Shown here piece after piece: positions 1 through 60,594 of a DNA stretch of 64,000 bases. The notes beneath the pieces are model-generated. The model saw only the letters and a program-made list of their open reading frames with translations. It had not been told where the DNA came from and made no database searches. Both the position numbers and the translations under genes were made by a program. The stretch lies in assembly GCA_945861665.1 (NCBI GenBank), contig CAMAVS010000003.1, positions 273,362 to 337,361 of the forward strand, written 5' to 3'. The stretch is from Chitinophaga pinensis. Its GTDB lineage: Bacteria; Bacteroidota; Bacteroidia; UBA4408. The first letter of the stretch is position 1. Every line of letters begins with the position of its first letter.

Positions 1-3000
1 TAACTGGAATCAATATAAGCTGTAATGGTGCTTGTACAGGAGTGGCAACGGCTGTTGCAACAGGAGGAACACCAGGTTATAATTACCTCTGGTTGCCTGG
101 TGGACAAACTACAGGTACAATTTCTAACTTATGTGTTGGAACGTACACTATTACTGTTACTGATTCAAATGGATGTACTTATACCGATTCAGTTATAATA
201 ACGCAAAATCTGCCTATTCTGGCTAACCCTATTGTAACAAATGCGTCATGTGGTGGTAACGATGGTGCAATTACTGTTAATCCAAGCGGTGGAGTAGGGC
301 CATATACTTATTTGTGGGCACCTGGCGGACAAACAACAGCAACTATTTTTAATCTATTAGCCGGAGTTTATACTGTGACTATAACTGATGCATTAGGATG
401 TAGTCAATCATTCCAAATCGCTGTGAGCAATGCGAATGGCCCAACAGTCAATAGTATTTTTACGAATCCTACTTGTAACGCAAGTTGCGATGGCTCTGCT
501 TCGGTGAATGTAGTTGCAGGAAATGCACCCTATACTTATTTATGGATACCCGGTGGCCAAACGGTCACTAATGTGAATGGACTTTGTGCTGGAACTTATA
601 ATGTTCAAGTTACTGATACTTTTGGCTGTATTACATTTATTACCATTGTGCTCACAGATCCTGCAGTTCTTGCCCCTAATCAAACGATTGTTAACGTAAG
701 TTGTTCCGGAGTGTGTACGGGAAGTATAAGTTTAATCCCGACAGGTGGCTCCCCCCCTTACTCTTATTTGTGGGCACCCGGTGGACAAACAACTTCATCC
801 ATAATCAACCAATGTGCGGGCATTTATAATGTTGTTATTACAGATGCTAACAATTGTTCTTTAAACCAAAATTTTACTATAACCGAACCCGCTCCTATAA
901 ATATTATTCTTACTTCAATTAACGTTCAATGTAACGGTGCTTGTAATGGCTCAATAAGTTCAGTAATTACAGGTGGTACTATTCCATACACATATTTGTG
1001 GGCACCTGGCGGACAAGGTATCCCGAATATTTCAAATTTATGTCCCGGAACATACACCATTACTGTAACCGATGTTTTGGGTTGTACCGCAAATCAATTA
1101 GTTACAATTACAGAACCAATTACACTTTCGTCCAGTACTACCCAAACAAATATTACTTGTAATGGAAATTGTGATGGAACAGCAACTGTTACTCCATTAG
1201 GAGGAACAGCACCTTATACTTATTTATGGTCACCTGGTGGTGCTACCACACAAACGATTACAAATTTATGTGCGGGAGTTTATAGTGTAACTGTTACAGA
1301 TGCAAATGGGTGTACCGCAGTTACAACAGCAACTATTACAGAACCAAATGCGATATTACCCAATGTGGTTTCAGTCGATGCACCTTGTAATGGTAGTTGT
1401 AATGGTAACGCAACAGGAACACCTACCGGTGGAACAACACCATATACTTATTTGTGGGCACCCGGAGGACAAACGACAGCCGCTATAAATGGACTTTGTG
1501 TAGGTAATTATACACTTACCGTGACAGATGCCAACGGTTGTATTGGTGCTCAAACAATAACAATTATAGAACCTTTACCACTTAATGCAAATGCAATTGG
1601 TGTTGATCCAACGTGCAGTGGAGGTTGTGATGGAAGTGCAACTGCAACTCCGACAGGAGGAACTGCACCTTATGTTTATTCTTGGAATCCCGGAGGGCAA
1701 AATACAGCCTCAATAAATAATTTATGTGTTGGTACGTACACTGTTAATATTACCGATGCAAACGGATGTACAACGAATCAAATAATTACCTTAAATAATC
1801 CGGTTTCCATCACTGCCATTAGTGCAGGTGCACCTGCTAATTGCGGTGTTTGTGATGGTATATTAAAAGTAATTCCGATAGGAGGTACTGCACCATATAC
1901 CTATGTTTGGTCACCAAATGTTTCGAACACAGATTCTGCTATTAATTTATGTGCAGGTGTTTATACCATTACCATTACAGATGCTTTAGGGTGTGTTGGT
2001 ATTGTAGCAATACCTGTAAATAATTCTTCCGGTCCTACTAGTGAAACAGTTGTACAAACAAACATTTCTTGTTTTGGTTTATGTGATGGTTCTGCTACAG
2101 TTACACCAATAGGTGGTGTTCAACCTTATACTTACTTATGGATTCCTGGCGGACAAACTACAAATTCAAGAATTAATATGTGTGCAGGGGCTTATTTCTT
2201 GCAAGTAACTGATGTGGATGGATGTATCCATTTTTCTCCCGTAACCATAACAACCCCCGATTCTCTTAATCCAAATGCTGCAATTATTAATGCTACTTGT
2301 TCCGGAGTATGCGATGGAAGTATAGCACTTTCACCTGTTGGAGGAACACCTCTTTTTACTTATTTATGGTCTCCGGGTGGTCAAACTACTTCAAATGTTA
2401 GTAATCTTTGTCCAGGGGCATATAGCGTTACTATTACCGATACCAACAATTGTGTGAATACGTTCAATTATACTATCAATTCCAATATTGCGATTAATAT
2501 TGCCATTACTACTGTAATCCCTACTTGTAATGGTGGATGTAATGGCACTGCCACTGTTGTAGCTTCGGGAGGTTCTCCTCCTTATACTTATTTATGGAAC
2601 GATCCATTAGGGCAAACTACAACTACTGCGACTGGTTTGTGTGGAGGTAATTATACTGTAACCATTATAGATGCCAATGGTTGTTTTTCTGTCCAGCTTG
2701 TTACAATTGTCGAGCCTGCTGCTATTTTGGCAAATCCTGCAATCACTGATCCTACTTGTGGATTGTGTGATGGTTTAATAACTGTGATTCCTTCAGGTGG
2801 AACTCCTCCATACACATACAATTGGAGTAATGGTCAAACCACTGCTACGGTTACAAATATTTGTGCCGGAGTATATACTGTTGCAATTACCGATGCAAAT
2901 GGATGTGTTTCAAATGTTAATATACCTGTGAATAATAGTTCCGGTCCAAATTCCGAAACCATTGTTATTACCAATGCTACTTGTAATGGTGTGTGCGATG

Positions 3001-4832
3001 GAACTGCTACCGTAACACCTATAGGTGGTGTTGCTCCATATACTTACTTATGGGTTCCAGGCGGGCAAACAACGAATACTGTTAATGGATTGTGTGCTGG
3101 TACTTATTTTATTCAAATGGTTGACCTAAATGGATGTATTCGTACAACTCCTATTGTTATTGCAGAGCCATCACAAATTATCACCAATCAAGTGGTAGTG
3201 AATGCTACTTGCGGAATGTGTGATGGCAGTATTTCTCTTGCCCCTTCAGGTGGATTAGCACCGTATACCTATGCTTGGTTACCGGGTGGACAAACAACTC
3301 CAAGTTTAATAAATTTATGTGCAGGCTTATATACCGTTACTATTACAGATGCCAATGGTTGTGTTCAAACATATGCTATTCCTATCAGTAATCCGAATTC
3401 TCCTTTAGTAACTTTTTCTACTAATTATGTTAGTTGTGCAGGTTCGTGTGATGGTACGGCACGAGTTATTTCTTTTGGTGGTGTTCCTCCTTATACTTAT
3501 TTGTGGAGCACTGGAGCTACAACAGATAGTATTAGTTCATTGTGTTCCGGTATTTATAGCGTAACTATTTCGGATGCATCAGGTTGCAATAGAGTTGTAA
3601 CTTTAACAATAGAGGAGCCTACAATTCTTGCTTTGAGTTTAACCAACATTATCAATCCATTGTGTAATCGTGATTGCAATGGATCACTAACAGTTGTTCC
3701 TTCCGGTGGAACTTTACCTTACCTGTTTAATTGGGCACCTACAGGTGGTAATGGAGTAACAGCAAGTAATTTGTGTGCCGGTTTATATACAGTAACAGTA
3801 ACAGATGCTAATGGGTGTTCTGTACAAGAAAATGTTACACTACTAGATCCTCTTTTGTTAACGCTTACAAATAATATAGTGTCTTCAAGTTGTAATACTA
3901 TAGCTGATGGTTCCATTGATATTACTGTGGGTGGTGGGGCACTTCCTTATGTATACCAATGGTCGGGGGCATCCAATGCTGTTACCGAAGATTTAAACAA
4001 TGTTTTGTTGGGAACTTATATCATCGAAGTTACCGATGGAAATGGCTGCCAAATAACTGATACCATCATTTTAACTTCAAGTATTTTTGTTGCTGTTAAC
4101 GCTGGGAAAGATACTTCAATTTGTGAACTCAGTTCAGTTATACTTAACGGAACAGATACGGGCGGTGTTACTTTTCAGTGGTTTGCAATACCTACAAATA
4201 CGCCAATTGGTAATGGAACTAAATCAATAACAGTTACACCTCCTTCCGGAGTTAATGGGTATGCTTTTGTTGGCTACAATGGATTATGTTCTGATACTGA
4301 TACTGTAATGATAACAACAACGCCTCTACCTGTTTCAGATGCAGGTACTGACGTTACTATTATTTTTCCACAAAGCGCTGTTTTAAATGGCACAGGAGCC
4401 GATGCCGGTGGAACGTATCATTGGTCTCCTCCTGCAGGTTTAAGTGATACTAATATTTTTAATCCAACTGCTACTCCAACTGAAACAACCACTTATTATT
4501 TAACAGTTACTAATAGTACAGGTTGTAGCTCAACCGATTCGGTTATAGTCACTGTGCTTCCTAAAATTGTATTCCCGAATGGTATTACCCCTAATGGTGA
4601 TGGTGCAAATGATAAATGGATAATTGACGGAATTGAGTATTATAAAAATTGTGTAGTTCAAGTTTACAACCGTTGGGGTGAAAATTTATTTACTTCAGTA
4701 GGATATGTTGAAAAGTGGGACGGAACGTATAAAGGCAAATTGCTGCCGGTAGGAACTTACTATTATGTTATTGACTTACACGATCCAATAAATACGGATA
4801 CGTATACCGGACCTATAACAATCTTGAGATAA
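1..4832 (+). CDS. Giant cell-surface adhesin, 5'-partial. It has about 35 SprB-type repeats and a T9SS type-B (gliding motility-associated) C-terminal sorting domain.
   Basis: The frame is open from base 1, so the listed Met at 42 is internal. An ~80-aa unit (C.G.CDG.A.V.P.GG..PYTYLW.PGGQTT) recurs throughout. The C-terminus (FPNGITPNGDGANDKW...YNRWGE...WDGTY.G...P.GTYYY) matches the type-B CTD. Confidence 0.85.
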   Translation, partial: TGINISCNGACTGVATAVATGGTPGYNYLWLPGGQTTGTISNLCVGTYTITVTDSNGCTYTDSVIITQNLPILANPIVTNASCGGNDGAITVNPSGGVGPYTYLWAPGGQTTATIFNLLAGVYTVTITDALGCSQSFQIAVSNANGPTVNSIFTNPTCNASCDGSASVNVVAGNAPYTYLWIPGGQTVTNVNGLCAGTYNVQVTDTFGCITFITIVLTDPAVLAPNQTIVNVSCSGVCTGSISLIPTGGSPPYSYLWAPGGQTTSSIINQCAGIYNVVITDANNCSLNQNFTITEPAPINIILTSINVQCNGACNGSISSVITGGTIPYTYLWAPGGQGIPNISNLCPGTYTITVTDVLGCTANQLVTITEPITLSSSTTQTNITCNGNCDGTATVTPLGGTAPYTYLWSPGGATTQTITNLCAGVYSVTVTDANGCTAVTTATITEPNAILPNVVSVDAPCNGSCNGNATGTPTGGTTPYTYLWAPGGQTTAAINGLCVGNYTLTVTDANGCIGAQTITIIEPLPLNANAIGVDPTCSGGCDGSATATPTGGTAPYVYSWNPGGQNTASINNLCVGTYTVNITDANGCTTNQIITLNNPVSITAISAGAPANCGVCDGILKVIPIGGTAPYTYVWSPNVSNTDSAINLCAGVYTITITDALGCVGIVAIPVNNSSGPTSETVVQTNISCFGLCDGSATVTPIGGVQPYTYLWIPGGQTTNSRINMCAGAYFLQVTDVDGCIHFSPVTITTPDSLNPNAAIINATCSGVCDGSIALSPVGGTPLFTYLWSPGGQTTSNVSNLCPGAYSVTITDTNNCVNTFNYTINSNIAINIAITTVIPTCNGGCNGTATVVASGGSPPYTYLWNDPLGQTTTTATGLCGGNYTVTIIDANGCFSVQLVTIVEPAAILANPAITDPTCGLCDGLITVIPSGGTPPYTYNWSNGQTTATVTNICAGVYTVAITDANGCVSNVNIPVNNSSGPNSETIVITNATCNGVCDGTATVTPIGGVAPYTYLWVPGGQTTNTVNGLCAGTYFIQMVDLNGCIRTTPIVIAEPSQIITNQVVVNATCGMCDGSISLAPSGGLAPYTYAWLPGGQTTPSLINLCAGLYTVTITDANGCVQTYAIPISNPNSPLVTFSTNYVSCAGSCDGTARVISFGGVPPYTYLWSTGATTDSISSLCSGIYSVTISDASGCNRVVTLTIEEPTILALSLTNIINPLCNRDCNGSLTVVPSGGTLPYLFNWAPTGGNGVTASNLCAGLYTVTVTDANGCSVQENVTLLDPLLLTLTNNIVSSSCNTIADGSIDITVGGGALPYVYQWSGASNAVTEDLNNVLLGTYIIEVTDGNGCQITDTIILTSSIFVAVNAGKDTSICELSSVILNGTDTGGVTFQWFAIPTNTPIGNGTKSITVTPPSGVNGYAFVGYNGLCSDTDTVMITTTPLPVSDAGTDVTIIFPQSAVLNGTGADAGGTYHWSPPAGLSDTNIFNPTATPTETTTYYLTVTNSTGCSSTDSVIVTVLPKIVFPNGITPNGDGANDKWIIDGIEYYKNCVVQVYNRWGENLFTSVGYVEKWDGTYKGKLLPVGTYYYVIDLHDPINTDTYTGPITILR

Positions 4833-4833
4833 G

Positions 4834-5754
4834 TTGAAAGTAAGATACACACATATCGTTTTTTTGATGTTTTTTGCTTTCAGCGTTAGTGCGCAGCAAT
4901 TACCGCAATACAGTCAGTATATGTTTAACAATTATGCGATAAATCCTGCAATTGGTGGTAGTACAAGTTATATTGAGGCTAAATCAAATAACCGTTACCA
5001 ATGGAAAGGCATAACCGATGCTCCAAGAACTTATGTGCTAACCTTGAATGGCCCAACCAAAACAGAAAAAGTAGGTTTGGGTGGAACTTTATTTACTGAC
5101 ATCACAGGTCCGACTAGAAGAACAGGTATATCAGTGTCTTATGCGTATCACTTAAAGCTTAATGAAGAATGGAAATTATCAATGGGGCTTGCGGGAGGTT
5201 TTCTTCAGTTTGCCATTGATGGCTCAAAAATAAAATTGCATGATGAAGGTGATAATGTTATTAGTACCGGTATTCAATCGGTAATTGTTCCTGATTTTGG
5301 TTTTGGTTTATATCTATATAATAAGAAAAGTTATTTTGGTATTTCTGCCCCTCAAATAGCACAAAATAATTTACGCTTTTTCGACTATCAAATAAGTTCG
5401 TTGAGTAAATTGGAGGATCATTATTATGTAACTGCAGGATATAAAATTGATTTGAATGAAGATTTTCAGGTGGAGCCGGGTATTTTGATAAAGTATGTAA
5501 AACCGACACCCGTGCAGTTTGATTTTGGTGGAAAAATTACATACAAACAAAAAGTTTGGTTAGGTTTAAACTACCGAACAAGAGATGCTGCTTCAATTAT
5601 GGCAGGCTACATTTATGATGATTACCTGGTTTTTGCTTATGCATATGACATTACAACCTCAAAGCTAAAGAATTACAGTGGAGGTACTCACGAAATTATG
5701 TTGGGACTTAAATTTTTTAAGAAAAAGGAAACTTCTGCAGCAACGCTTAAATAA
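4834..5754 (+). CDS. PorP/SprF-family T9SS membrane protein, the partner of the upstream type-B CTD adhesin.
   Basis: N-terminal signal peptide followed by the family signature QQLPQYSQYMFNNYAINPAIGG. It starts 2 nt after the adhesin stop. Confidence 0.8.
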   Translation: MKVRYTHIVFLMFFAFSVSAQQLPQYSQYMFNNYAINPAIGGSTSYIEAKSNNRYQWKGITDAPRTYVLTLNGPTKTEKVGLGGTLFTDITGPTRRTGISVSYAYHLKLNEEWKLSMGLAGGFLQFAIDGSKIKLHDEGDNVISTGIQSVIVPDFGFGLYLYNKKSYFGISAPQIAQNNLRFFDYQISSLSKLEDHYYVTAGYKIDLNEDFQVEPGILIKYVKPTPVQFDFGGKITYKQKVWLGLNYRTRDAASIMAGYIYDDYLVFAYAYDITTSKLKNYSGGTHEIMLGLKFFKKKETSAATLK

Positions 5755-12085: not shown

Positions 12086-14080
12086 ATGAATAAAGGTCTA
12101 CTAACGGTTTTAGCTTTAAGTACTGCTTTATCAGCCGTTGCTCAAAGCAATTTAAAATCACTTCAACAAGTCGATAAAAATCGTGTTGATACATATCAAG
12201 CTGGTTTTGCTGCAAACAAACTTCAAAAGCCAGCATCTATTTTAAGACCTCAAGGTGTAAGTGCTTTTACGCTTACTAGAATTGATATTGGAGTTTCTCC
12301 AAATGCTTATACTTGTGGATTTGGACCTAAAACTTATTTATGGGCAGATCCATCATTAAACGCAGTTTCTTTTGCACATCGTGGCACTGGTGTTCCTATA
12401 AGTTTAATCGGACTGGTTAACTATTCTGTTTCAAAGGATGGTGGCGCAACTTGGCCTGGAATTGATCTTAATGCTTACCTTCCCCAAGGCGAACCACTTG
12501 GTGTTAACTTTTCTGCAGCTCGTTACCCTCAAGGATTAATTTATAATCCAGTAGGAAATACAAACGTTGACTCAGCATACTTTGCTTATTTTGCTCCAAC
12601 GCGTAACAATACTAACCCAGGTCCAAATTCGGCCGATTGGGGTGGGATTGGTTACGGTGTTCACCAATTGAGTTCATTGTTACCTGCTAGACAAAGAGAA
12701 ATGAGATCAATAACTGTTCCTAACAAAGCTGAGTTTCATTTAATTCCTGATGGAATGTACACTTCTCAGCAAGGTGTTGTTTGGGCACTTGATCAATCAA
12801 ACAACCAAAATGCTGTAAATGGTTATAGAGATTCCTTGAATTTATTCAAAGGTTTTTGGAATGCGGGAACAAGAGATATTGACTATTTATTGAAAAAAAT
12901 TCCTGCCTCTATGACTACTCGTACTAGCGGAAATTCTATTGTATCTAACTACATTGATTGTAGAATTGCTTTTGCTCCGAACGGGCAAATAGGTTGGATA
13001 TCAATTTTAGGACATAACAGTTACATTGCTCGCCCAGATTCAGGTTTTTATCCAATATTGTACAAAACAATTGACGGTGGAACAAATTGGACTGGACCTT
13101 ACAGTGTTGATATTAATGGTTTAGCTGCTGTTACTGCATTAGGTGGAACTACCTTTACAACAGGTTTTGAACATGATTTAGTGGTGGATGTAAATGGTAA
13201 TCCTTATGTTACTTGTGCAATTGGTAAATTGGCTGCAAACTGGTCTATTTCAAGTGGACCAGGAAATTGGGGGCATTTTGTTGTATATTCTCCAAACGGT
13301 GGAACTAACTGGCATGCTGAATTGTTAGACAAAAGTCAAACATTCAGAGGCACTTTTGGTGCAGGTGCAAACGCAGTGAATGAAGATGGTCGTCCGCAAG
13401 CTTCAACAAATTGGGCAGGTGATAAATTATTCTTCGCTTGGTTTGATACCGATACATTCTCAAATGCAGGTGTTGGAAACTTAGCACCCGATTTATATGT
13501 ACGCGGCTTTAATGTTACAACTGATATGTGGACTGCAAGAAGACCGCATCCACTTCAAGGTGGTGTAATGACTTTTGGAGTTACAATTGGTGGAACCCCT
13601 TGTGAATTTGAAGTTACAATGGGTAACCTTTCTTACTATGTATTTACCAATGGAACCACTTCTGAGGTGCCGGTTTCTTATATGAAATTGGTTGACCCGG
13701 GTGATGCTACATCTCCTACAAGTCATCATTATATAAAAGGTATCACATACAATGATGTTGACTTTGTTGTGCCTACTGATACAGTTGGTCTTACAAATGG
13801 TATTAAACCATACGCAAATGATCATTTTGCTTTTGGTGTTAATCCAAATCCATTTAAAGGCAACGTAAACATTAAATATAACTTATCCTCTAACAGCAAT
13901 GTTTCTATAGAAATATATAACATATTGGGTGAAAAAGTAATGAATGTTGTTGCAAATCAAAACCAATTGCTTGGTGAACACAAATACAACGTTGACCTAA
14001 GCAAATACAATTCAGGAATTTATATTGTAAAAGCTAAATTGGGTAACGAAACTGTAACAAGAAAAATTACTCAGTACTAA
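12086..14080 (+). CDS. Secreted BNR/Asp-box repeat protein with a T9SS type-A C-terminal sorting domain.
   Basis: Signal peptide; Asp-box motifs SKDGGATW, TIDGGTNW and SPNGGTNW; C-terminal Por_Secre_tail-like region (NPNPFKGNVNIKY...IEIYNILGEKV...GIYIVKAKLGNETVTRKI). Confidence 0.75.
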   Translation: MNKGLLTVLALSTALSAVAQSNLKSLQQVDKNRVDTYQAGFAANKLQKPASILRPQGVSAFTLTRIDIGVSPNAYTCGFGPKTYLWADPSLNAVSFAHRGTGVPISLIGLVNYSVSKDGGATWPGIDLNAYLPQGEPLGVNFSAARYPQGLIYNPVGNTNVDSAYFAYFAPTRNNTNPGPNSADWGGIGYGVHQLSSLLPARQREMRSITVPNKAEFHLIPDGMYTSQQGVVWALDQSNNQNAVNGYRDSLNLFKGFWNAGTRDIDYLLKKIPASMTTRTSGNSIVSNYIDCRIAFAPNGQIGWISILGHNSYIARPDSGFYPILYKTIDGGTNWTGPYSVDINGLAAVTALGGTTFTTGFEHDLVVDVNGNPYVTCAIGKLAANWSISSGPGNWGHFVVYSPNGGTNWHAELLDKSQTFRGTFGAGANAVNEDGRPQASTNWAGDKLFFAWFDTDTFSNAGVGNLAPDLYVRGFNVTTDMWTARRPHPLQGGVMTFGVTIGGTPCEFEVTMGNLSYYVFTNGTTSEVPVSYMKLVDPGDATSPTSHHYIKGITYNDVDFVVPTDTVGLTNGIKPYANDHFAFGVNPNPFKGNVNIKYNLSSNSNVSIEIYNILGEKVMNVVANQNQLLGEHKYNVDLSKYNSGIYIVKAKLGNETVTRKITQY

Positions 14081-16961: not shown

Positions 16962-17657
16962 TTATTTATTTTTTTTATCGTTATCACCATTTTTGTTAGT
17001 CGTGTTTTTTGTATCTGTCGATTTATTTAATTCCGTCAATTTTTTATTGAATTCATTTGCTGATTGCGAAATTTGATCTTGAAATATTTCTTTAACTGTC
17101 AATATCTTGCCGTCCATTGTTTGATTAGTTTCTTTTATTTGTTTTTCAAACCTTACTCTTAACTCATCAATTTTACTATTATTATTATCATTTATTTGTG
17201 CTATATTTTTGTTTAAATCTTCCTCTTTTTGTTTAATGTTATTGTTAATAGCAGATAATTTTTTCATTACATAAATTAAATATATCAGTACAAGAAAAAT
17301 TCCACCAATAATTGCAATAATAGCATATAGTTTTCTTTTACTAAAAGATTGGCTAATGTTTTTGGTATGTTCATTTAAATTATTTATGGACTTAGAAATA
17401 GCGTTTTGCTTTTCAGCTTCTTTTTGAATTTCATTATTTGCCGTTTGAAGTATTGTAATAATACTGTCTGTTTTTCGAATTTCTTGCAATAGATTCTGAT
17501 TTTGATCATTCAATTGGTTTTTTAATAATGCATTGGATTTTTGCAATAATAAAATATCCGCTGAGTTGTTCTGTGAATCTTTTTGTGTGTTGTTAGTTTG
17601 AGCTTTCAAATAACAATTTGAAAGCATTAATGCTGCAATAAATATTGATTTTTTCAT
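16962..17657 (-). CDS. Hypothetical coiled-coil protein with a signal peptide and one central transmembrane segment.
   Basis: 231 aa, rich in Q/N/K/E, with the hydrophobic helix LYAIIAIIGGIFLVLIYLIYV. Confidence 0.5.
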   Translation of the reverse strand: MKKSIFIAALMLSNCYLKAQTNNTQKDSQNNSADILLLQKSNALLKNQLNDQNQNLLQEIRKTDSIITILQTANNEIQKEAEKQNAISKSINNLNEHTKNISQSFSKRKLYAIIAIIGGIFLVLIYLIYVMKKLSAINNNIKQKEEDLNKNIAQINDNNNSKIDELRVRFEKQIKETNQTMDGKILTVKEIFQDQISQSANEFNKKLTELNKSTDTKNTTNKNGDNDKKNK

Positions 17658-18307
17658 TGTTTTTGGGTTTTTATTAGTTTGTTTATTTTATTTCGCAATA
17701 TAATTTACTTATATATTAAGAATGTTCAATAATATATTATTAGCGACTCAATTATCAAGCTATTCTTACGAATGACCCCTACATTATCATTCTTCTAATT
17801 AATGAAACTTGCCCTAAATGATAATAACTATGTTTAATAACACCTTCAATATTTCGTAAATAACCTCAGTTTTTCGCTAACAAATGACTTGGTTTAATTT
17901 GCTGTTTTCCATTTGTTCAACATTGGTTATTCTTTTTATATTATCTAACTTATACAGTATGAGTTAATTGTAATTTATTGCTAAAATAATAAATTTTTAT
18001 TATAACCGCAATTATATTCACTCTAAGCGTTCGAATTTTGTGCGTATGCGGGGTTTCCGCATAACGTTTTAGGGTTAAGAGTTGGCGGGCATTTCGGAAC
18101 TAAATCGCAAATTAAAAAAATGTTGCGCACAGTGCACCTTTAAAAAAGCATTTTTAACTTGCAGGAGCTCCGCATTTTCTATTTACTTTTACCTTGCTGG
18201 CGTATTGTCAGCTATGTTATTGTCCGAAGTACTCGACTGTCGGCTTACTATTTTTTGCGTGAGCTTTGTGCGACTTTTAAAAGCGTTTGCAAATTAGTTG
18301 GCTATTT

Positions 18308-21300
18308 TTAAACTCGGATTCCAATTACTAAAATGTCGTCAACTTGTTCATTTCTGCCTTTCCAGCCTTCAACAAAATTATCTAAGTATTGTTCTTGTTC
18401 TTGCATTGTCTTGTTTTGAATACTGACTAAAATTTCTTTTAATTTTCTGGTCATTAATTTTTTTCCATCATGTCCGCTAAACTGGTCTGCGTAACCGTCT
18501 GTGCAAATGTAAAAAGTGTCGCCTTGCTGTAATTTTATTTCGTGCGTGTCAAAATGCTGATCATCATTTGTCAACCCACCTATAGCAACTTTAGTTCCTT
18601 TTATTTCTTCCACTTCGGTCTGCCCGTTACCGATAATCCACATAGGTCGGTTTGCACCAGCGTATTTTACAATACGATTTTTTGTGTCTACGGAGCAAAT
18701 AGCAATGTCCATTCCGTCTCTTGTTGATTCGCCTTTGCTTGATTGTTTTAAAGATGTTTTTACACCTTTATTTAGCAAGGATAATATTTCACTTGTATTA
18801 TTACTCTGTTGAACAGCATCTGTCAGTCGTTCTGAACCAACCATACTCATAAAAGCACCCGGCACTCCGTGTCCGGTACAGTCAACTACTGCGATAAAAA
18901 TAGGCCCCTCCCCAGCCCTCCCCGAAGGGGAGGGAGCATTATGAAAGAAATAAAAGTCTCCGCTTACAATATCTTTTGGTTTAAAGAGAATGAAACTTTG
19001 AGGTAGCGATAAATAAATTTCTTTTTTGTCGGGAAGAAATGCTTGCTGTATGCGAAGCGCATAGTTGATGCTGTCGGTTATTTCTTTGTGTTTTTCTTCT
19101 ACTATTTCCTTCTGCTTCGAAATTTCTACGTTAGCAAATTCAATTTTTGCTTTTTCTTCTCTTATAACAACTGTTGCTATTCGCACTTCTTCAGTAAGTT
19201 CTATTGCTCTTACTCTCAATCTTCTTCCGTTCCACCAAACAATTAAAATAACTGTTGTAATAATTAATAAACCATAAATTGAATAAGCCCACCACGTTTT
19301 CCACCATGGTGGACGAATTGTAAATGTGTAATTAAATTCGTCACTCCAATACCCTTCACTGTTCATTGCCTTTACTTTAAACGAATACTTTCCTTGTGGT
19401 AAGTTGCCATAAGGCGCTTCCGTGCGGTTAGTAATCGCGCTCCAGTTTTCATCAATGCCTTCTAATTTATATTGGTATTTTACTTTTTTACTTTGCTTTT
19501 GTGTGATGCTGATAAAATTAAAAGTTAAGTAATTGTTGTTGTATGCTAAACTTAAATTCTCCGGCAAGCTATACCATTTGGTAATTCCCTCAAACTCAAA
19601 ATCACTAACGCTTACTCCATTGCCAAGTGTTAGTGTGCTATCTTTTTTCTTCTCTAAATTTACCCAGCCAATATTTTCATTAAACAAGGCTATGCTTGTT
19701 AATTCAATATTTGGAGCAACAGTATCTGTGTTTTCTCCTTGAGGATGAAAAGCGGTTAGCCTGAAATTTGCTGCAACCCAAATAGTACCATTTTTATCTT
19801 CACAAATTGTTTTACCACCATTTACACCAATGCCTAAAAAACCATCTTCATACGTGTAGTTTTTAAAAAGTATTTCATCGGCTTGTATTTTGTTGAACTT
19901 GACTTTGTCATTTATTTCAACTAACTTCTCCTTACCTAGTCTTGCAAGACCAAAGCGGGTGCCGAACCAAAGGTTTCCGCTTTTGTCTTCCAGCATCGAC
20001 AAAACAGAATTATTACTGAGCCCTTCTTTTTCTGTAAAATGCGTAAAGGATTTCCCGTCATATTTACTGACTCCGCCATCCGTACCGAACCAAAGGTTTC
20101 CGCTTTTGTCTTCCAATATACTCTTTACAATATTATTGCTGAGCCCTTCTTTTTTTGTAAAATGCGTAAAGGATTTAACAAGTTTTCCATTAACTCTTTT
20201 AAGGCCTTGTTGAGTTCGTTGAGGAATAATCTCTCCTCTTTTCTCTGCGGCTTCTATTGCCTCAACTAGGTTCCCGTCATATTTTGATACGCCTCCGCCA
20301 TTCGTGCCGAACCAAAGGTTTCCGCTTTTGTCTTCCAATATACTCCAAACAGTATTATTGCTGAGCCCTTCTTTTTCTGTAAAATGCGTAAAGGATTTCC
20401 CATCATATTTACTCACTCCGCCATACGTCCCGAACCAAAGGTTTCCGCTTTTGTCTTCCAATATACTCCTTACAATATTATAAAATCGGTCTTCTTTTTC
20501 TGTAAAATAATGCGTAAAGGATTTAACAAGTTTTCCATTTTCTCTTTTAAGGCCTTGTTGAGTTCGTTGAGTAATAATCTCTCCTCTTTTCTCTGCGGCT
20601 TCTATTGCCTCAACTCGGTTACCGTCATATTTTGATACACCTCCGCCATCCGTGCCGAACCAAAGGTTTCCGCTTTTGTCTTCCAACATACTCCAAACCC
20701 TATTATTGATGAGCCCTTCTTTTTCTGTAAAATGCGTAAAGGATTTAACAAGTTTTCCATTTTCTCTTTTTAGGTCTTGTTGTGTTCGTTGAGGAATAGT
20801 CTCTCCTCTTTTCTCTGCGGCTTCTATTGCCTCAACTCGACTCCCGTCATATTTTGATACACCTCCGCCATACGTGCCGAACCAAAGGTTTCCGCTTTTG
20901 TCTTCCAACATCGACAAAACTTTATTATTGCTGAGCCCTTCTTTTTCTGTAAAATGCCTAAAGGATTTACCGTCATATTTGTTTACTCCTCCATCCGTGC
21001 CGAACCAAAGGTTTCCGCTTTTGTCTTCCAATATACTCCTTACAATATTATTGCTGAGCCCTTCTTTTTCTGTAAAATGCGTAAAGGATTTCCCGTCATA
21101 TTTTGATACACCTCCGTCATACATGCCGAACCAAAGGTTTCCGCTTTTATCTTCTAACATCGAAACAGCATTATTACTCAAACCTTCTTTTTCTGTAAAA
21201 TGCGTAAAGGATTTAACAAGTTTTCCATTTTCTCTTTTTAGGTCTTGTTGTGTTCTTTGAGGAATAACCTCTCCTCTTTTCTCTGCGGCTTCTATTGCCT

Positions 21301-22084
21301 CAACTCGGTTACCGTCATATTTTGATATACCTCCGCCATCCTTGCCGAACCAAAGGTTTCCGCTTTTGTCTTCCAGCATCGACAAAACAGAATTATTGCT
21401 GAGCCCTTCTTTTTTTGTAAAATGCGTAAAGGATTTACCGTCATATTTACTGACTCCGTCATCCGTGCCGAACCAAAGGTTTCCGCTTTTGTCTTCCAAC
21501 ATACTCCAAACAGCATTATTGCTGAGCCCTTCTTTTTCTGTAAAATGCGTAAAGGATTTCCCGTCATATTTACTTACTCCGCCAACCGTACCGAACCAAA
21601 GGTTTCCGCTTTTGTCTTGAAGCATGCAACGTGTTGCATCATGTTTTAAACCTTGTAATTTACTAAAAGAAGAAAAGCCTTCGGGGTTTTGGTCTTTTAC
21701 GTAAGCGTCTTTTGCAATTACAACTTCGGGTATTCCTGCTACAAAAGGGCTGTCGATGGCGGGAATTGTTTTGGGAAGAAGAAAAGTGTCTTGTCCGGGA
21801 GTAATTACTCTTGGTATTCCCGCTAAATGTATGTTTGTGTTTATTGCAATGTGAATATTTGTGTTTGTTGGAACTACTTTTGGATTTCCTGCTTTTACAA
21901 TTGTTGGTTTGCCACAAGGTATAACCTTTGGCTCCGTTACACTGTCTTTCGGTACAACATAACCTTTTGTTTCAATCACTTTTGGTGCAAAGGTGTTTGG
22001 TCGTTCCCGCTCTTCCTTTTGAGAGCAGGAAAAAAGGAACATCCCGCTTATTAAAAGAATGATTTGAATTTTTATTTTATTCAT
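18308..22084 (-). CDS. Multidomain signalling protein: lipoprotein signal peptide, Pro-rich linker, about 12 two-component-regulator-propeller (Reg_prop) blades, a Y_Y_Y domain, a transmembrane helix, a coiled coil and a C-terminal PP2C/SpoIIE-type Ser/Thr phosphatase.
   Basis: The blade motif DKSGNLWFGT.GGVSKYDGKSFTHFTEKEGLSNN recurs. The Y_Y_Y-like region is YQYKLEGIDENWS...GKYSFKVKA, followed by helix WWAYSIYGLLIITTVILIVWW. The PP2C motifs are GDFYFF, VVDCTGHGVPGAFMS, DGMDIAIC and FYICTDGYADQFG. Confidence 0.85.
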   Translation of the reverse strand: MNKIKIQIILLISGMFLFSCSQKEERERPNTFAPKVIETKGYVVPKDSVTEPKVIPCGKPTIVKAGNPKVVPTNTNIHIAINTNIHLAGIPRVITPGQDTFLLPKTIPAIDSPFVAGIPEVVIAKDAYVKDQNPEGFSSFSKLQGLKHDATRCMLQDKSGNLWFGTVGGVSKYDGKSFTHFTEKEGLSNNAVWSMLEDKSGNLWFGTDDGVSKYDGKSFTHFTKKEGLSNNSVLSMLEDKSGNLWFGKDGGGISKYDGNRVEAIEAAEKRGEVIPQRTQQDLKRENGKLVKSFTHFTEKEGLSNNAVSMLEDKSGNLWFGMYDGGVSKYDGKSFTHFTEKEGLSNNIVRSILEDKSGNLWFGTDGGVNKYDGKSFRHFTEKEGLSNNKVLSMLEDKSGNLWFGTYGGGVSKYDGSRVEAIEAAEKRGETIPQRTQQDLKRENGKLVKSFTHFTEKEGLINNRVWSMLEDKSGNLWFGTDGGGVSKYDGNRVEAIEAAEKRGEIITQRTQQGLKRENGKLVKSFTHYFTEKEDRFYNIVRSILEDKSGNLWFGTYGGVSKYDGKSFTHFTEKEGLSNNTVWSILEDKSGNLWFGTNGGGVSKYDGNLVEAIEAAEKRGEIIPQRTQQGLKRVNGKLVKSFTHFTKKEGLSNNIVKSILEDKSGNLWFGTDGGVSKYDGKSFTHFTEKEGLSNNSVLSMLEDKSGNLWFGTRFGLARLGKEKLVEINDKVKFNKIQADEILFKNYTYEDGFLGIGVNGGKTICEDKNGTIWVAANFRLTAFHPQGENTDTVAPNIELTSIALFNENIGWVNLEKKKDSTLTLGNGVSVSDFEFEGITKWYSLPENLSLAYNNNYLTFNFISITQKQSKKVKYQYKLEGIDENWSAITNRTEAPYGNLPQGKYSFKVKAMNSEGYWSDEFNYTFTIRPPWWKTWWAYSIYGLLIITTVILIVWWNGRRLRVRAIELTEEVRIATVVIREEKAKIEFANVEISKQKEIVEEKHKEITDSINYALRIQQAFLPDKKEIYLSLPQSFILFKPKDIVSGDFYFFHNAPSPSGRAGEGPIFIAVVDCTGHGVPGAFMSMVGSERLTDAVQQSNNTSEILSLLNKGVKTSLKQSSKGESTRDGMDIAICSVDTKNRIVKYAGANRPMWIIGNGQTEVEEIKGTKVAIGGLTNDDQHFDTHEIKLQQGDTFYICTDGYADQFSGHDGKKLMTRKLKEILVSIQNKTMQEQEQYLDNFVEGWKGRNEQVDDILVIGIRV
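18902..18938. repeat. GC-rich perfect palindrome inserted in-frame inside the PP2C domain coding sequence.
   Basis: CCCTCCCC-GAA-GGGGAGGG forms an 8-bp G/C stem. It is preceded by a second CCCCTCCCC copy and sits in otherwise ~35% GC DNA. It encodes the Pro/Gly-rich peptide SPSGRAGEGP. Confidence 0.7.
19890..21660 (-). repeat. Intragenic tandem DNA repeats (about 120-nt blade units with variable junctions) inside the propeller gene, including four copies of an in-frame 96-nt insert.
   Basis: The unit CCGAACCAAAGGTTTCCGCTTTTGTCTTCCAA... recurs at least 11 times at near-100% nucleotide identity. The insert encoding NRVEAIEAAEKRGE.I.QRTQQ.LKR.NGKLV occurs four times at the same blade position. 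Confidence 0.85.
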
Positions 22085-30883: not shown

Positions 30884-30945
30884 AATCTTCCCGTTCTTTC
30901 ATCTATAAATTATTTGCTGTAACTTTGAGAGTATATTATAGAATT

Positions 30946-33135
30946 ATGAAAAAGATACTTCTCCTTATTTTATACGTATTCTCTTTCAGTTTTTCTGTTA
31001 ATGCACAATTTTATTTTAAAAAGATAGATACCCTCAACGTTAAAATTGGCAATACCAATTTAGAGAATGCTTGGGCAGGGGGGGCGAATTTTGTTCAAGT
31101 ATCGGACATTGATTTGGACCAGGATAGTATTATGGACCTTTTTGTGTTTGATAGAACCGGAAATAAAATATCAACCTATATTAACAAGGGAACAGCAGAT
31201 TCTATTGATTATAAATACGACTGGACGTATATTAAAAAATTTCCTAAGCTGCACGACTGGGTATTATTGCGCGATTATAATTGTGATGGCAAAATGGATA
31301 TCTATACCTACAACAATGGTGGTGTAGATGTGTATAGGAATATTTCTGATGCGAATGGCCTGAGCTTTGTGCTTGCAGAAAGTTTACTCTTTTCAAACTA
31401 TCATCCCAATATGTTAAATCTATACATTACTCTTGTTGATATTCCAGCTATTTACGATATTGATAAGGATGGTGATATTGACATACTTACCTTCAATATT
31501 TTGGGAGGCTTTTTGGAGTACCACAAAAATATGTCGATGGAAATTTATGGCGTGTGTGATAGTTTAAAAAAAATATATCAGCTTGATAATGGATGCTGGG
31601 GTAATTTTAGTGAAAGCGGTATCAATAGTACTATTAATTTGGGTATTAGTTGTAAGGGGCCTGGTGGAAATATTGATCCGCAACAAGTAAACCATTCAGG
31701 TTCGGCATTGTGTAGTTTTGATGCCGATGGGGATGGCGACTGCGATTTATTGTTACATGACATTTCAAGCAATGGTGGAATTATGTTAACCAATGGTGGC
31801 GACATCAATACAGCGAGTTTGGTTGCACAAGACGGCAATTTCCCTTCCAATTCTGTTAAATTAGATATTGTTGGATTTCCTTCCAGCTATTATGTGGATG
31901 TGAATAACGATGGAAAGCGCGATTTGATAGCAAGTCCTAATGCCCAAAATTTATCCGAAAACTTTAACAGTATTTGGTGGTATAAAAATATGGGCAACGA
32001 CTCAATGCCTGTTTTTGTGCATCAAAAAAATAACTTTTTGCAGGATGAAATGATAGAAGTAGGGCAGGGAGCTTTTCCTGTTTTCTTTGATTATAATAGT
32101 GATGGTTTGTTGGATATTGTAATTGGTAACGCGGGTTACTATAACGCGGGGGCAATGAAATCGACATTAACCTTGATGAAGAATATTGGAACTATTGCAA
32201 AACCCGCATTTGAAATTGTAAGCCTTGACTATGCTAACTTATCGTTAAATAACTTTAAAGATATTTATCCCACTTTTGGCGATTTGGATGGTGATACCGA
32301 TAAAGATATGGTGGTGGGTGACGACCAAGGGCATTTGCATTATTATGAGAATATGGCAGCTATAGGTACTGCTGCCAATTTTGTTTTATCAATGCCACTT
32401 TTGGGTGGAATTGATATTGGCAGTTATGCAATGCCACAATTGATTGACTTGGATAGAGATGGTTTGTTGGACCTTGCCATTGGTGAGCAAAGCGGTAATG
32501 TGAACTATTACCGCAATACAGGCACTGTAAACAATGCTGCATTTACTTTGATGAAAGCAAATTTGGGTGGCGTAAAAACCAATTTACCGAATTACATTGT
32601 AGGCTATAGCGCACCAAAATTTATTGACGTGAATGGTTCCTTCAAATTAATTTGCGGTTCCGAGAACGGAAATATTTATTACTACAATAACATTGATGGT
32701 AACTTAAATGGCAATTTTACTTTGGTTGATTCTGCCTATTACGGTATATGGGAAGGTGTACGCTCTGCATTGGATGTTACCGACTTAAACCAAGATGGAT
32801 ATTACGATATGGTGGTGGGGAATTACTCAGGAGGACTTGGTTTTTACTTAGGAGATATTGGTGGTTCTATAAATGAGAATGTGGTGAATGATGTATTTAA
32901 TTTATACCCAAATCCTGCATACGATAATGTTACCATTGAAGTAGACAAACATTTTGATTTAAGCCACAGCTGTTTATTCATTGTAAATGTGGTAGGTGAA
33001 AAGGTGCTTGAAAAAAGTTTTAGCGAACGTTATACCGCAACTATTAATATTAGCAACCTTGCTAAAGGTGTTTACTTTGTGAATATTAGCAATGATACTT
33101 ATTCTTGTACTAAGAAAATGGTGATTGCAAGGTAG
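30946..33135 (+). CDS. FG-GAP/VCBS-repeat secreted protein with a T9SS type-A C-terminal sorting domain.
   Basis: Repeated D.D.DG..D motifs (FG-GAP-like). C-terminal LYPNPAYDNVTIEV...IVNVVGEKVLEKSF...GVYFVNISNDTYSCTKKMVI. The start is taken at MKKILLLIL (signal peptide). Confidence 0.7.
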   Translation: MKKILLLILYVFSFSFSVNAQFYFKKIDTLNVKIGNTNLENAWAGGANFVQVSDIDLDQDSIMDLFVFDRTGNKISTYINKGTADSIDYKYDWTYIKKFPKLHDWVLLRDYNCDGKMDIYTYNNGGVDVYRNISDANGLSFVLAESLLFSNYHPNMLNLYITLVDIPAIYDIDKDGDIDILTFNILGGFLEYHKNMSMEIYGVCDSLKKIYQLDNGCWGNFSESGINSTINLGISCKGPGGNIDPQQVNHSGSALCSFDADGDGDCDLLLHDISSNGGIMLTNGGDINTASLVAQDGNFPSNSVKLDIVGFPSSYYVDVNNDGKRDLIASPNAQNLSENFNSIWWYKNMGNDSMPVFVHQKNNFLQDEMIEVGQGAFPVFFDYNSDGLLDIVIGNAGYYNAGAMKSTLTLMKNIGTIAKPAFEIVSLDYANLSLNNFKDIYPTFGDLDGDTDKDMVVGDDQGHLHYYENMAAIGTAANFVLSMPLLGGIDIGSYAMPQLIDLDRDGLLDLAIGEQSGNVNYYRNTGTVNNAAFTLMKANLGGVKTNLPNYIVGYSAPKFIDVNGSFKLICGSENGNIYYYNNIDGNLNGNFTLVDSAYYGIWEGVRSALDVTDLNQDGYYDMVVGNYSGGLGFYLGDIGGSINENVVNDVFNLYPNPAYDNVTIEVDKHFDLSHSCLFIVNVVGEKVLEKSFSERYTATINISNLAKGVYFVNISNDTYSCTKKMVIAR

Positions 33136-42928: not shown

Positions 42929-44236
42929 TTACTTTAAGATATGAATTTTTCTCGTTATCGTTTCTTTTCCAGTTCTAAGTTCAATAAAATAAATACCGTT
43001 TGAAACATTGCTTAAGTCAACAGTATACTTGCCCATTTTGTTATTATCGAAAGTGTTGGTATAAAAAGTATTTCCTAAAATATCGTACACTTTAACTTCC
43101 ATTGTAGATTTATTAAAGAGCTCTATGTTTACATTTACCAAACCATTCGAAGGATTTGGATAAATGGAAATGTTTTTTTCAATATTTACCTGCTCTTCAG
43201 TAGAGGCAATTAATAAGAATCGATAAGGACTTTTTGTTAATGCGGTGTGCATTCTGGTTTTTTGGTTGTTGGTAAACATTACTACAACATTATCGTCACA
43301 ATAATCCATAAAGTTCATAAACATATCACCATTTGGGGCATTTCCGGGGCAATTGGATGTACTAGGGAAATTAGGACTGCCAAAATTTTCTTCAAATTGT
43401 GTTGGTGTATCATTGCAATAATCAGTAGCACACGTATCGTCACCCCAAATATGTCGTAAACCTAAGTAATGTCCTATTTCGTGTGTAGTGGTTCTTCCTA
43501 AATCCTCACCAAATATAACGTTTCCTGTTGTTCCAAAAGCATTGTATTTAACAACAATTCCGTCTGTAATAGATGTTCCGAAAGGTCCAAATAAGCCTGT
43601 TAAGGTAGAGTTTGGAGGAAAAGTTGCGTAACCTAATAAGGGCGAAGCTAAATTACATGTCCAAATATTTAAAAAGAGTTTAGGATTCCAAATACTATTT
43701 GGCTTTATGGTTTGAGTTACATATGTTTCTGAATAGGGTGCAGCTGACCATCCCATTGTCGTTCGATTAATTCGCTCAATTCCCGGTGTTGCCATTGGAC
43801 TCCCATATTGATCTACAGTTGTTAAAAAGAAGTTTATTTGGCAATCGGCAACTCTGGTGGTCCAAACTCCTGGAGTATTATTCCAATCTGAATTTGTTTT
43901 GGTAAAATCCTTATTCAAGGATGCGATTTGTGATTGAATTTGAGCATCACTAATATTGGAATTGGTGCCAATTGCCTCTCCATTATTAATTACGTGAACA
44001 ATTACAGGAATATTGTATATAATGGCATTAGTTTTACCTGCAAAATAGGATTCATCAACTAAATTTATTGCCATCCAATTTTCGAATTCTTCTAAAGTAC
44101 CCATTTCAGGATTTTCTGCACGCATTTTTCTATCCACATCCATTGTTGCACACCTTCCAGCGTTATGATGTTGAGCAATTACAATTGTTGAAGTAAGTAA
44201 ACTGGTAATCGCTAATGTTATTAGTTTTATTTTCAT
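42929..44236 (-). CDS. M43-family (pappalysin/ulilysin-like) zinc metalloprotease with a T9SS type-A C-terminal sorting domain.
   Basis: Metzincin HEIGHYLGLRHIWGDD; signal peptide; C-terminal IYPNPSNGLVNVNIE...GIYFIELRTGKETITRKIHI. Confidence 0.8.
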   Translation of the reverse strand: MKIKLITLAITSLLTSTIVIAQHHNAGRCATMDVDRKMRAENPEMGTLEEFENWMAINLVDESYFAGKTNAIIYNIPVIVHVINNGEAIGTNSNISDAQIQSQIASLNKDFTKTNSDWNNTPGVWTTRVADCQINFFLTTVDQYGSPMATPGIERINRTTMGWSAAPYSETYVTQTIKPNSIWNPKLFLNIWTCNLASPLLGYATFPPNSTLTGLFGPFGTSITDGIVVKYNAFGTTGNVIFGEDLGRTTTHEIGHYLGLRHIWGDDTCATDYCNDTPTQFEENFGSPNFPSTSNCPGNAPNGDMFMNFMDYCDDNVVVMFTNNQKTRMHTALTKSPYRFLLIASTEEQVNIEKNISIYPNPSNGLVNVNIELFNKSTMEVKVYDILGNTFYTNTFDNNKMGKYTVDLSNVSNGIYFIELRTGKETITRKIHILK

Positions 44237-47554: not shown

Positions 47555-47734
47555 ATGTCTGAAGAGAAAAAAAATGAAATACTTGAATTCGAAATTCCAA
47601 TAGGTGGGTCATTAGGAATGTTGGCATTAGGAGCTGTTGGTTATTTAGCTTGGAAAAAAAAGGTAGAAGAGGCGAAAGTGAAGGGAAATAGTTTAACTGA
47701 AAATACAATAAAAGATGGGAAAGCGACTAGCTAA
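47555..47734 (+). CDS. Possible small single-pass membrane protein.
   Basis: MSEEKKNEILEFEIPIGGSLGMLALGAVGYLAWKKK...; sits between the two AlkP-family genes. Weakly supported. Confidence 0.25.
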   Translation: MSEEKKNEILEFEIPIGGSLGMLALGAVGYLAWKKKVEEAKVKGNSLTENTIKDGKATS

Positions 47735-50282: not shown

Positions 50283-50875
50283 TGAATAATTTAACACCCG
50301 TTATCAGTAAAGTGTCGATGGGCCAACGGCAGAATCAGTTGCAACAAAAACCTCTTGTTGTTTGGCTTACTGGCTTTTCGGGTGCAGGTAAAACAACCAT
50401 TGCACAAGCACTTGAACAACTATTGTATCAGCATAATTACAAATCGGTTGTTCTGGATGGAGATAATATTAGAGGTGGTTTGAATAACAATCTTTCATTC
50501 TCAGAGCAAGATAGAACGGAAAATATAAGACGAATTGCAGAGGTGTCAAAACTGTTTTGCGACAGTGGACTAATTGTAATTTCAAGTTTTATAACACCGC
50601 TTAACAGTATGCGAAAAATGGCACGTAGCATTATTGGTGATGAAAAATTTGTTGAAGTATTTGTAAACTGCCCTATTGAAGTGTGTGAGCAACGTGATGT
50701 GAAAGGTTTGTATAAAAAAGCACGTACTGGGGAGATTAAAAATTTTACAGGAATGGATGCCGGTTTTGAAATTCCAAGCCAAGCCGAATTGGTAATTGAC
50801 TCGAATGGTACTTCGAGCGAACAGTCGGTTAAAAAACTTTACGATTACATTGTTTCAAAAATTAAATTGGTATAA
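50282..50875 (+). CDS. cysC: Adenylyl-sulfate (APS) kinase.
   Basis: P-loop LTGFSGAGKTTIA and SFI.P motifs; 197 aa. Its GTG start overlaps the stop of the sulfotransferase fusion by 1 nt. Confidence 0.9.
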   Translation: MNNLTPVISKVSMGQRQNQLQQKPLVVWLTGFSGAGKTTIAQALEQLLYQHNYKSVVLDGDNIRGGLNNNLSFSEQDRTENIRRIAEVSKLFCDSGLIVISSFITPLNSMRKMARSIIGDEKFVEVFVNCPIEVCEQRDVKGLYKKARTGEIKNFTGMDAGFEIPSQAELVIDSNGTSSEQSVKKLYDYIVSKIKLV

Positions 50876-60570: not shown

Positions 60571-60594
60571 CACTAAGGCACTAAGTTCACTTAG
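60571..60594. promoter_or_regulatory. Palindromic motif copy (CACTAAGGCACTAAG-TTCA-CTTAG) in the fadA-ACAD intercistronic gap.
   Basis: Contains CTAAG-GCA-CT(A/T)AG palindrome units; one of four related copies. Confidence 0.35.

Follow-up and report, generated by a model that had tools for sequence, protein, structure and literature searches.

The window analyzed here comprises 64,000 nucleotides of contig CAMAVS010000003.1 from an assembly labelled Chitinophaga pinensis (GCA_945861665.1). A single open reading frame (ORF) on the reverse strand (18308-22084) encodes a putative inner-membrane receptor of 1258 amino acids (aa), identical to the database protein P0002. The ORF, with Pfam and NCBIfam assignments for its domains, comprises in order a signal peptide, an N-terminal region, an array of Reg_prop blades, a Y_Y_Y domain, a transmembrane helix, a coiled-coil linker and a PP2C phosphatase domain. 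The blades are highly similar in their DNA, four of them carry a 32-aa insert, and the gene is 345 nt shorter than that of an otherwise identical sibling contig. The best explanation combines a known receptor family, homogenized blades, a family-wide insert and a blade count collapsed during assembly; as a whole it is considered fairly probable.

The lipoprotein-type signal peptide with its lipobox (MNKIKIQIILLISGMFLFSC, 22025-22084) was read from the sequence; the lipobox Cys20 is unchanged in 71 aligned homologs. It is followed by a region of short beta-strands ahead of blade 1 (aa 21-152, 21629-22024), which is conserved in homologs and appears as partly ordered strands in the AlphaFold model. 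Pfam assigns 11 stretches to Reg_prop (PF07494; 243.9 bits against a cut-off of 20.4, E 6.6e-77). The Y_Y_Y domain (aa 865-923, 19316-19492; 52.6 bits, E 4.2e-14) aligned to the C-terminal domain of the PDB entry 3V9F. A transmembrane helix (AYSIYGLLIITTVILIVWW, aa 933-951, 19232-19288), recognized by inspection, lies directly behind it and continues into a charged helical linker. The cytoplasmic part (18311-19132) is a PP2C phosphatase similar to SpoIIE, RsbU and SiaA. The SpoIIE/PP2C profile (PF07228) covers aa 1060-1258 with 76.3 bits against a cut-off of 25, the motifs DCTGHG, DGMD, TDGYAD and VDD are present, and PDB entry 6K4E is matched. With a domain score above threshold and the Asp motifs, the protein belongs to the PP2C family, and catalysis is predicted. 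These assignments bear out the Reg_prop/Y_Y_Y/PP2C transmembrane architecture proposed in an earlier sequence-only reading of the window. The sensor part, with multiple Reg_prop repeats and a Y_Y_Y domain followed by a transmembrane helix, is of the type found in hybrid two-component systems (HTCS). Histidine kinase, receiver and AraC domains were not found C-terminal of the transmembrane helix, where SpoIIE/PP2C is the only domain; the protein is therefore not an HTCS proper.

The gene is an unexceptional representative of a very large family of Bacteroidota membrane sensors, the architecture of which is already known and annotated. A homolog search yielded more than 7,800 relatives, many of which carry the Joint Genome Institute (JGI) name 'ligand-binding sensor domain-containing protein / serine phosphatase RsbU'. 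In some relatives the same sensor is fused to histidine-kinase or adenylate-cyclase outputs. The nearest genome loci belong to uncultured metagenome-assembled genomes (MAGs) labelled Bacteroidetes or Bacteroidota, with sample names that suggest lakes. A literature search for the Reg_prop/Y_Y_Y/PP2C architecture returned papers on HTCS, polysaccharide utilization loci and PorZ, and no experimental study.

The sensor contains 11 near-identical Reg_prop blades (19877-21628), each marked by the motif GNLWFG. The motifs are spaced by 41-42 or 73-75 residues, which corresponds to the blade unit of 41-42 aa and its insert-bearing form of 73-75 aa. Together with a divergent last blade, recognized in the sequence and the model (…KNYTYEDGF…GTIWVAAN…, aa 738-781, 19742-19873), the total is about 12, as counted in the sequence-only reading. 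A helix-containing linker ahead of the divergent blade is constitutive in the family. Tandem Repeats Finder reported periods of 123, 222, 345 and 468 nt. The 29-nt core of the repeat, the reverse complement of GAAGACAAAAGCGGAAACCTTTGGTTCGG, occurs exactly in nine of the 11 blades and with one mismatch in the remaining two, as against no match in shuffled sequences. That reading had quoted this unit correctly, although its estimate of near-100% identity was too high: DNA identity is 81-95% among the core blades (mean 88%) and 91-96% among the insert copies. The longest exact repeat within the window gene measures 73 nt. Periodic sigma-70-like matches (TTTACA…AATAAT) and terminator-like hairpins were noticed on the reverse strand between 20009 and 21544. 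They were rejected as regulatory sites, being by-products of repeated codons (HFTEKEGLSNN and the insert). Scans of the region for Rfam families, tRNAs, promoters and terminators gave nothing relevant.

The blade DNA appears to have been recently amplified or gene-converted, and codon comparisons support a homogenization that is recent or ongoing in this lineage. In the 14-blade allele (L001), comparison of the 11 full blades shows 20 of 43 codons to be invariant, and the proportions of synonymous and nonsynonymous differences are 0.22 (pS) and 0.088 (pN), respectively. The mean identity of its blades is about 87% at the amino acid level and about 90% at the DNA level. Over the family, the DNA identity of blades within one gene ranges from 58% (Chryseolinea) up to 90-93% in this clade; because of this range of 58% to 93%, blade homogeneity is lineage-specific and does not reflect a general constraint. 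The recent duplication or concerted evolution suspected earlier is supported by these figures. In another gene (L011), the C-terminal segment from Y_Y_Y to PP2C shares 56% protein identity with the present one, yet its blades are 89% identical in DNA to the present blades. L005 (3442-7359; protein P0007), a gene that resembles a paralog and has another genomic context, was compared with the 14-blade sibling contig L085. Outside the repeat array the two sensors are 77-91% identical in DNA, including an odd KSFTHYFTEKEDRFYN blade, and the PP2C parts 61-72%. A close sensor next to a diverged PP2C suggests an exchange of sensor modules between receptors of different output subtypes.

Recent amplification and homogenization of blades is known from many beta-propeller lineages (PMC9218822). 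That study defines highly repetitive propellers by a median blade identity above 60%, a value which the present gene exceeds; no mention of a Reg_prop or two-component lineage was found in its main text. Unlike those propellers, the present family interleaves two blade forms, with and without insert, in a fixed total of 14.

The blades are not uniform at every site. Among 120 homologs, positions 16 (NNxV), 18 (VxS) and 33 (GTxGG) of the 42-residue blade were the most variable within single proteins, with about 2.2 bits as against at most 1.4 bits elsewhere. Judged from propeller topology, these positions would lie on the entry face, where strand 1 starts and within the loop joining strands 2 and 3. 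Hypervariable positions on a near-invariant scaffold form a pattern like that of the recognition surfaces of other repeat proteins.

Blades 3, 6, 7 and 9 carry an insert of 96 nt (32 aa), each time in register between ...KYDG and KSFTH..., which confirms the four copies described before. Copy 1 in blade 3 (NRVEAIEAAEKRGEVIPQRTQQDLKRENGKLV, 21215-21310) is modelled as two helices, one of 12 residues and one short, followed by a short beta pair, with a predicted local distance difference test score (pLDDT) of about 92-95. Copy 2 in blade 6 (20747-20842) and copy 4 in blade 9 (20177-20272) reached 85-93 and 87-91, respectively. Copy 3 in blade 7 (20525-20620) is followed by an aberrant KSFTHYFTEKEDRFYN, and the stretch aa 496-535 has a pLDDT of only 24-46 in the 12-blade model. 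The copies are 91-96% identical to each other in DNA. A 36-nt core is exact in all four of them and occurs nowhere else in the window.

The insert is an old, family-wide optional form of the blade, as judged from sequence comparison. By blade counting with a hidden Markov model (HMM), 52 of the 120 best homologs carry the long insert; the copy number per protein is 0-7. In these 120 its positions were behind blades 3-6 and 8-12; blades 1, 2, 7 and 13 were never followed by it. Proteins of 42-67% identity carry the same insert in the same loop, e.g. GNRVEAIQKGDKEAQRTQYDLKRENGKLVKSF, GNRVEAIESGENIPPQLQKDLKKINGKLVKSF and GNCVDDMINGTNIYPQNQQDLKKNNKNIVKSF, with the conserved motif GNR[VI][ED]AIE…QQDLKK.NGK[LF][VI]KSF. 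The insert is likewise seen among relatives whose outputs are of the adenylate-cyclase or PAS/GAF kind. At distant loci the insert DNA is 58-68% identical to that of the window, and there are two length classes of 28 aa and 32 aa. The strand 3-4 loop is a general hotspot of length variation, because shorter inserts, mostly of 6-12 residues, also sit there in 35 of the 120 homologs (e.g. P0015, P0012, P0065 and P0081; an example is PSAKLRTVSE). Phmmer with the insert alone (40 aa) returned nine matches among 1.84 billion representatives, a query too short to gauge prevalence. An hhalign comparison of the optional insert with the helix that is constitutive between blades 13 and 14 aligned no more than 24 columns, which lie mostly in the blade part.

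In the AlphaFold model of the 14-blade sibling each insert is built from two helices, one of 12 residues (NRVEAIEAAEKRG) and one short (QQDL), and from a short beta pair that runs into strand 4 (pLDDT 72-94). Standard propeller topology would put this helical decoration, which occupies the strand 3-4 loop, at the rim or on the exit side of the propeller. The helical character ascribed to the insert in the sequence-only reading is retained in the model, as a loop decoration; the view that a charged helix in a blade is unusual did not hold. As a tentative best guess, it may provide a contact surface at the rim or exit side for dimerization or for packing against the Y_Y_Y domain or the membrane.

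The family norm is 14 blades, arranged as two seven-bladed propellers as in BT4663 of Bacteroides thetaiotaomicron. The blade HMM gave 13-14 hits in 100 of the 120 top homologs, a count made up of 13 canonical blades and the divergent last blade, which is detected inconsistently. Most loci from other genomes likewise have 13-14 hits, including a tig-named Ca. Opimibacter MAG and the genome of Chryseolinea sp. T2. The window copy, with 12 blades, departs from this norm; the sibling of the same haplotype does not. This sibling (L085; ERZ27280278, contig k141_1953656, protein P0122) carries the diagnostic substitutions of the window. Over 15,777 nt, i.e. the gene with 6 kb on either side, the two sequences agree at 100% identity apart from 345 nt that are absent from the window. 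The missing segment comprises one insert-bearing blade and one plain blade and is bounded by a perfect direct repeat of 71 nt. The 71-nt tract is present twice in L085, 345 nt apart, and once in the window (21046-21116, reverse strand), where it marks the probable junction of a collapse or deletion.

Proteins nearly identical to that of the window occur in several lengths. In the five sibling contigs compared, 12 kb of flanking sequence match the window at 99.8-100% identity. Among 12 assemblies of this population, five have 14 blades, which is the modal number, one has 13, two have 12 and four have 8; an expansion beyond 14 was not seen in any of them. The two 12-blade assemblies represent two different deletions, and the four 8-blade assemblies another two, one of which was seen three times and on two haplotypes. 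This recurrent deletion (aa 282-626 of P0001) occurs on the haplotype backgrounds R707L and G1341C; the location given for it is 21046-21116 of the window and 6969-7313 of L085. Its recurrence points either to a reproducible assembler path or to a recombination hotspot in insert DNA of 93-98% identity. All four shorter variants compared in DNA are single in-frame deletions of the 14-blade gene, with junctions in exact homology tracts of 71, 46, 40 and 36 nt. Four sibling contigs retrieved from the European Nucleotide Archive (ENA) have MEGAHIT-style names (k141_…), which indicate short reads. The 107-nt junctions specific for the deletion and for the reference gave no exact match each in JGI metagenome contigs, a collection from which this population is absent.

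Structural models were compared for both lengths. The AlphaFold model of the 14-blade sibling, built from a 71-row alignment, has a mean pLDDT of 84.5, and its Foldseek matches to 4A2M, 4A2L and 3V9F span about 945 columns with an E of about 1e-44. Its best fit to the PDB sensors (4A2M) has an E of 2.4e-44 and a template-modelling score of 0.47, as against 1.3e-36 and 0.37 for the 12-blade form. In the latter, confidence drops in the third insert and the next strand, the stretch of low pLDDT at aa 496-535 given above.

The window copy is probably a repeat-collapsed version of the 14-blade gene, or the minor path of an assembler through it; in the strain itself, the gene most likely comprises 14 blades, five of them with an insert. 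A short-read de Bruijn assembly would have jumped across the 71-nt perfect repeat and thereby lost the 345-nt higher-order unit. If the collapse is true, copy 1 of the tract would join ...ACTGTTTGG, and ...GTATGTCGGAGG would join copy 2. The warning of an assembly collapse in the sequence-only reading looks right in this respect, the window being the 14-blade sibling minus 345 nt at a 71-nt repeat. Several points weigh against a collapse. It is deduced from a comparison of assemblies, and a real deletion polymorphism would give the same junction signature. No exact repeat in the 14-blade gene is longer than 89 nt, which is below the final k of 141, so that a well-covered assembly should resolve the array, as five of the assemblies have done. 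For the 8-blade junction that recurs on two haplotypes, a recombination hotspot is another possible source. AlphaFold keeps a mean pLDDT of 84.6 for the 12-blade form. As to function, the ligand, the substrate of the phosphatase and what the insert does are assigned by analogy within the family and by fold topology.

The same observations can be read as real in-frame deletion alleles of 13, 12 and 8 blades, produced by homologous recombination or slippage in a nearly clonal population and reaching high frequency in some samples; the window would then hold a genuine 12-blade allele. This is rather unlikely. Every junction lies in an exact tract of 36-71 nt, long enough for a RecA-dependent or slippage-mediated deletion, one junction is common to three assemblies on two haplotype backgrounds, a collapse is not forced with repeats shorter than the k-mer, and the 12-blade form is still modelled mostly with confidence. 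However, only contractions occur and no expansions, 14 is the modal count in the population and strongly conserved in the family, and two seven-bladed propellers cannot be formed from twelve or eight blades. Seven structures in 12 assemblies with 99.8-100% identical flanks would require a very fast turnover of alleles in a periplasmic protein that is under no obvious diversifying pressure. The window haplotype, moreover, also exists in the 14-blade form (L085). That the counts of 14, 13, 12 and 8 differ in reality among essentially identical genomes, as natural in-frame length alleles of a double-propeller receptor, is regarded as unlikely. If it were true, recombination of homogenized blades would continually generate non-canonical propellers, or sensors with a loss or change of function.

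A programmed contingency locus, in which blade expansion and contraction would cause phase or antigenic-type variation, had been considered in the sequence-only reading and is very improbable. The repeats are tandem and in register with long exact cores, and their copy number differs between assemblies. The array is, however, located between a signal peptide and a transmembrane helix, hence periplasmic and not exposed at the surface, and all variants are in frame, which leaves no on/off switching. The variants are contractions from the canonical 14, found in short-read k141 contigs, and blade expansions were not seen among the sibling assemblies. Neither an invertase nor a recombinase or mobile element adjoins the gene, and repetitive blades are common to many beta-propeller lineages (PMC9218822). 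Hardly any likelihood is left for the other proposal of that reading, a separately acquired in-frame cassette, i.e. a mobile mini-element lately spread among the blades. The high identity of the four copies with their 36-nt exact core would fit such an element, as would the varying number and position of insert-bearing blades between homologs. Yet the copies are as alike as the surrounding blade DNA, and the insert has therefore been homogenized along with the blades. Terminal repeats and target duplications are lacking, the rest of the window contains no further copy, and the model shows the insert as an integral part of the blade. That reading had itself named as counter-evidence a standard feature of the family in distant taxa with diverged DNA; this is what the 58-68% identity, in the same loop and with a conserved motif in proteins of 42-67% identity, amounts to.

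The receptor is closest in its sensor to three HTCS proteins of B. thetaiotaomicron. Sequence searches against the PDB matched BT3049 (3V9F, E 6e-54), BT4663 (4A2L/4A2M) and BT4673 (3OTT/3VA6), with E values from 6e-54 to 2e-38. These sensors are dimeric and are made up of two seven-fold beta-propellers with a Y_Y_Y domain; in BT4663, the ligand is bound at the entry face of each of the two propellers (PMC5121618). The present family shares with these three the Reg_prop blades, the two seven-bladed propellers with Y_Y_Y and the subsequent transmembrane helix. It differs from them in a PP2C output instead of histidine kinase, receiver and AraC domains, in far more uniform blades, in the lipobox and in an N-terminal extension of 130 aa. 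Optional helical inserts of 28-32 aa in strand 3-4 loops are a further difference, as are the 12 blades of the window copy. The output is like that of RsbU, SpoIIE and SiaA of P. aeruginosa, i.e. a PP2C/SpoIIE domain with Asp motifs (6K4E, E 7.9e-35). Unlike SiaA, it is joined to a different sensor domain; the NCBIfam SiaA model (NF038263) scored 184.5 bits over the PP2C part only, against an equivalog cut-off of 700. PorZ has two seven-bladed propellers with a beta-sandwich at the C-terminus as well (Foldseek E 1.6e-20, partial NCBIfam PorZ match). In contrast, it is a secreted type IX secretion system (T9SS) cargo with a C-terminal domain (CTD) and without transmembrane helix or phosphatase, and the score remained well below the cut-off.

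From the domain order, the fold match, the elements of membrane topology and the PP2C motifs, a signaling route may be proposed by analogy. A periplasmic ligand, probably a glycan or oligosaccharide, would be read by the variable entry-face residues of both propellers. The signal would pass through Y_Y_Y, the transmembrane helix and the coiled coil and change the activity of the PP2C domain. The phosphatase would then dephosphorylate a STAS- or SiaC-type partner encoded elsewhere. Genes for STAS, SiaC-like or anti-sigma proteins were absent among the scanned ORFs of the window, in agreement with the earlier remark that no anti-sigma antagonist is nearby; the scan comprised all ORFs of 150 aa or more as far as position 60573 and three free-standing shorter ones, with 60701-61894 and 61949-63925 not scanned. 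A partner-switching module, with substrate and anti-sigma kinase encoded together with the phosphatase, was likewise not found among these ORFs. A tblastn search for RsbV gave only weak chance matches.

The neighboring genes, namely SprB, PorP/SprF and several Por_Secre_tail genes, assign the window to Bacteroidota. A forward-strand ORF of 1596 aa (42-5754) contains 16 SprB repeats together with a CHU_C T9SS signal and precedes PorP/SprF; the two form a gliding-motility adhesin cassette. Further Por_Secre_tail cargo genes are located at 12086-14080, 30925-33135 and 42929-44236. The stretch 16962-18307 downstream of the receptor holds, on the same strand, a coiled-coil membrane ORF of 231 aa without a Pfam or NCBIfam match. 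It is separated from the receptor by an AT-rich gap of 650 nt, in which no Rfam hit was found. As a conserved partner of the receptor it was rejected; among the fetched loci it is present only in this population. The acyl-carrier-protein phosphodiesterase gene (AcpH, PF04336; 16153-16738, forward strand) is split. Its 129-aa ORF covers profile positions 67-183 only, an in-frame stop at a T6A5 run lies just upstream, and sibling contigs have the gene annotated as two fragments; it is either a pseudogene or a homopolymer error. On the forward strand, the region 47715-50875 encodes a fusion of type I phosphodiesterase, TPR repeats and a sulfotransferase domain (855 aa) directly upstream of an adenosine 5'-phosphosulfate (APS) kinase gene. 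Fusion and kinase are an unusual pair related to sulfation.

Genes for homogenized propellers are mis-sized in short-read metagenome assemblies, as seven structures among twelve siblings illustrate. Blade counts and apparent strain variation from short-read data are not to be trusted without repeat-spanning reads. The helical decoration varies in number and position between proteins, and the finding opens no long-standing question. The receptors form a very large, unstudied class in Bacteroidota, in which a glycan-sensor fold of the HTCS type is placed on a PP2C phosphatase and, in relatives, on kinases or cyclases. A fixed scaffold of 14 blades, three hypervariable positions per blade and an optional helical decoration together provide a handle on the ligand specificity of this class.

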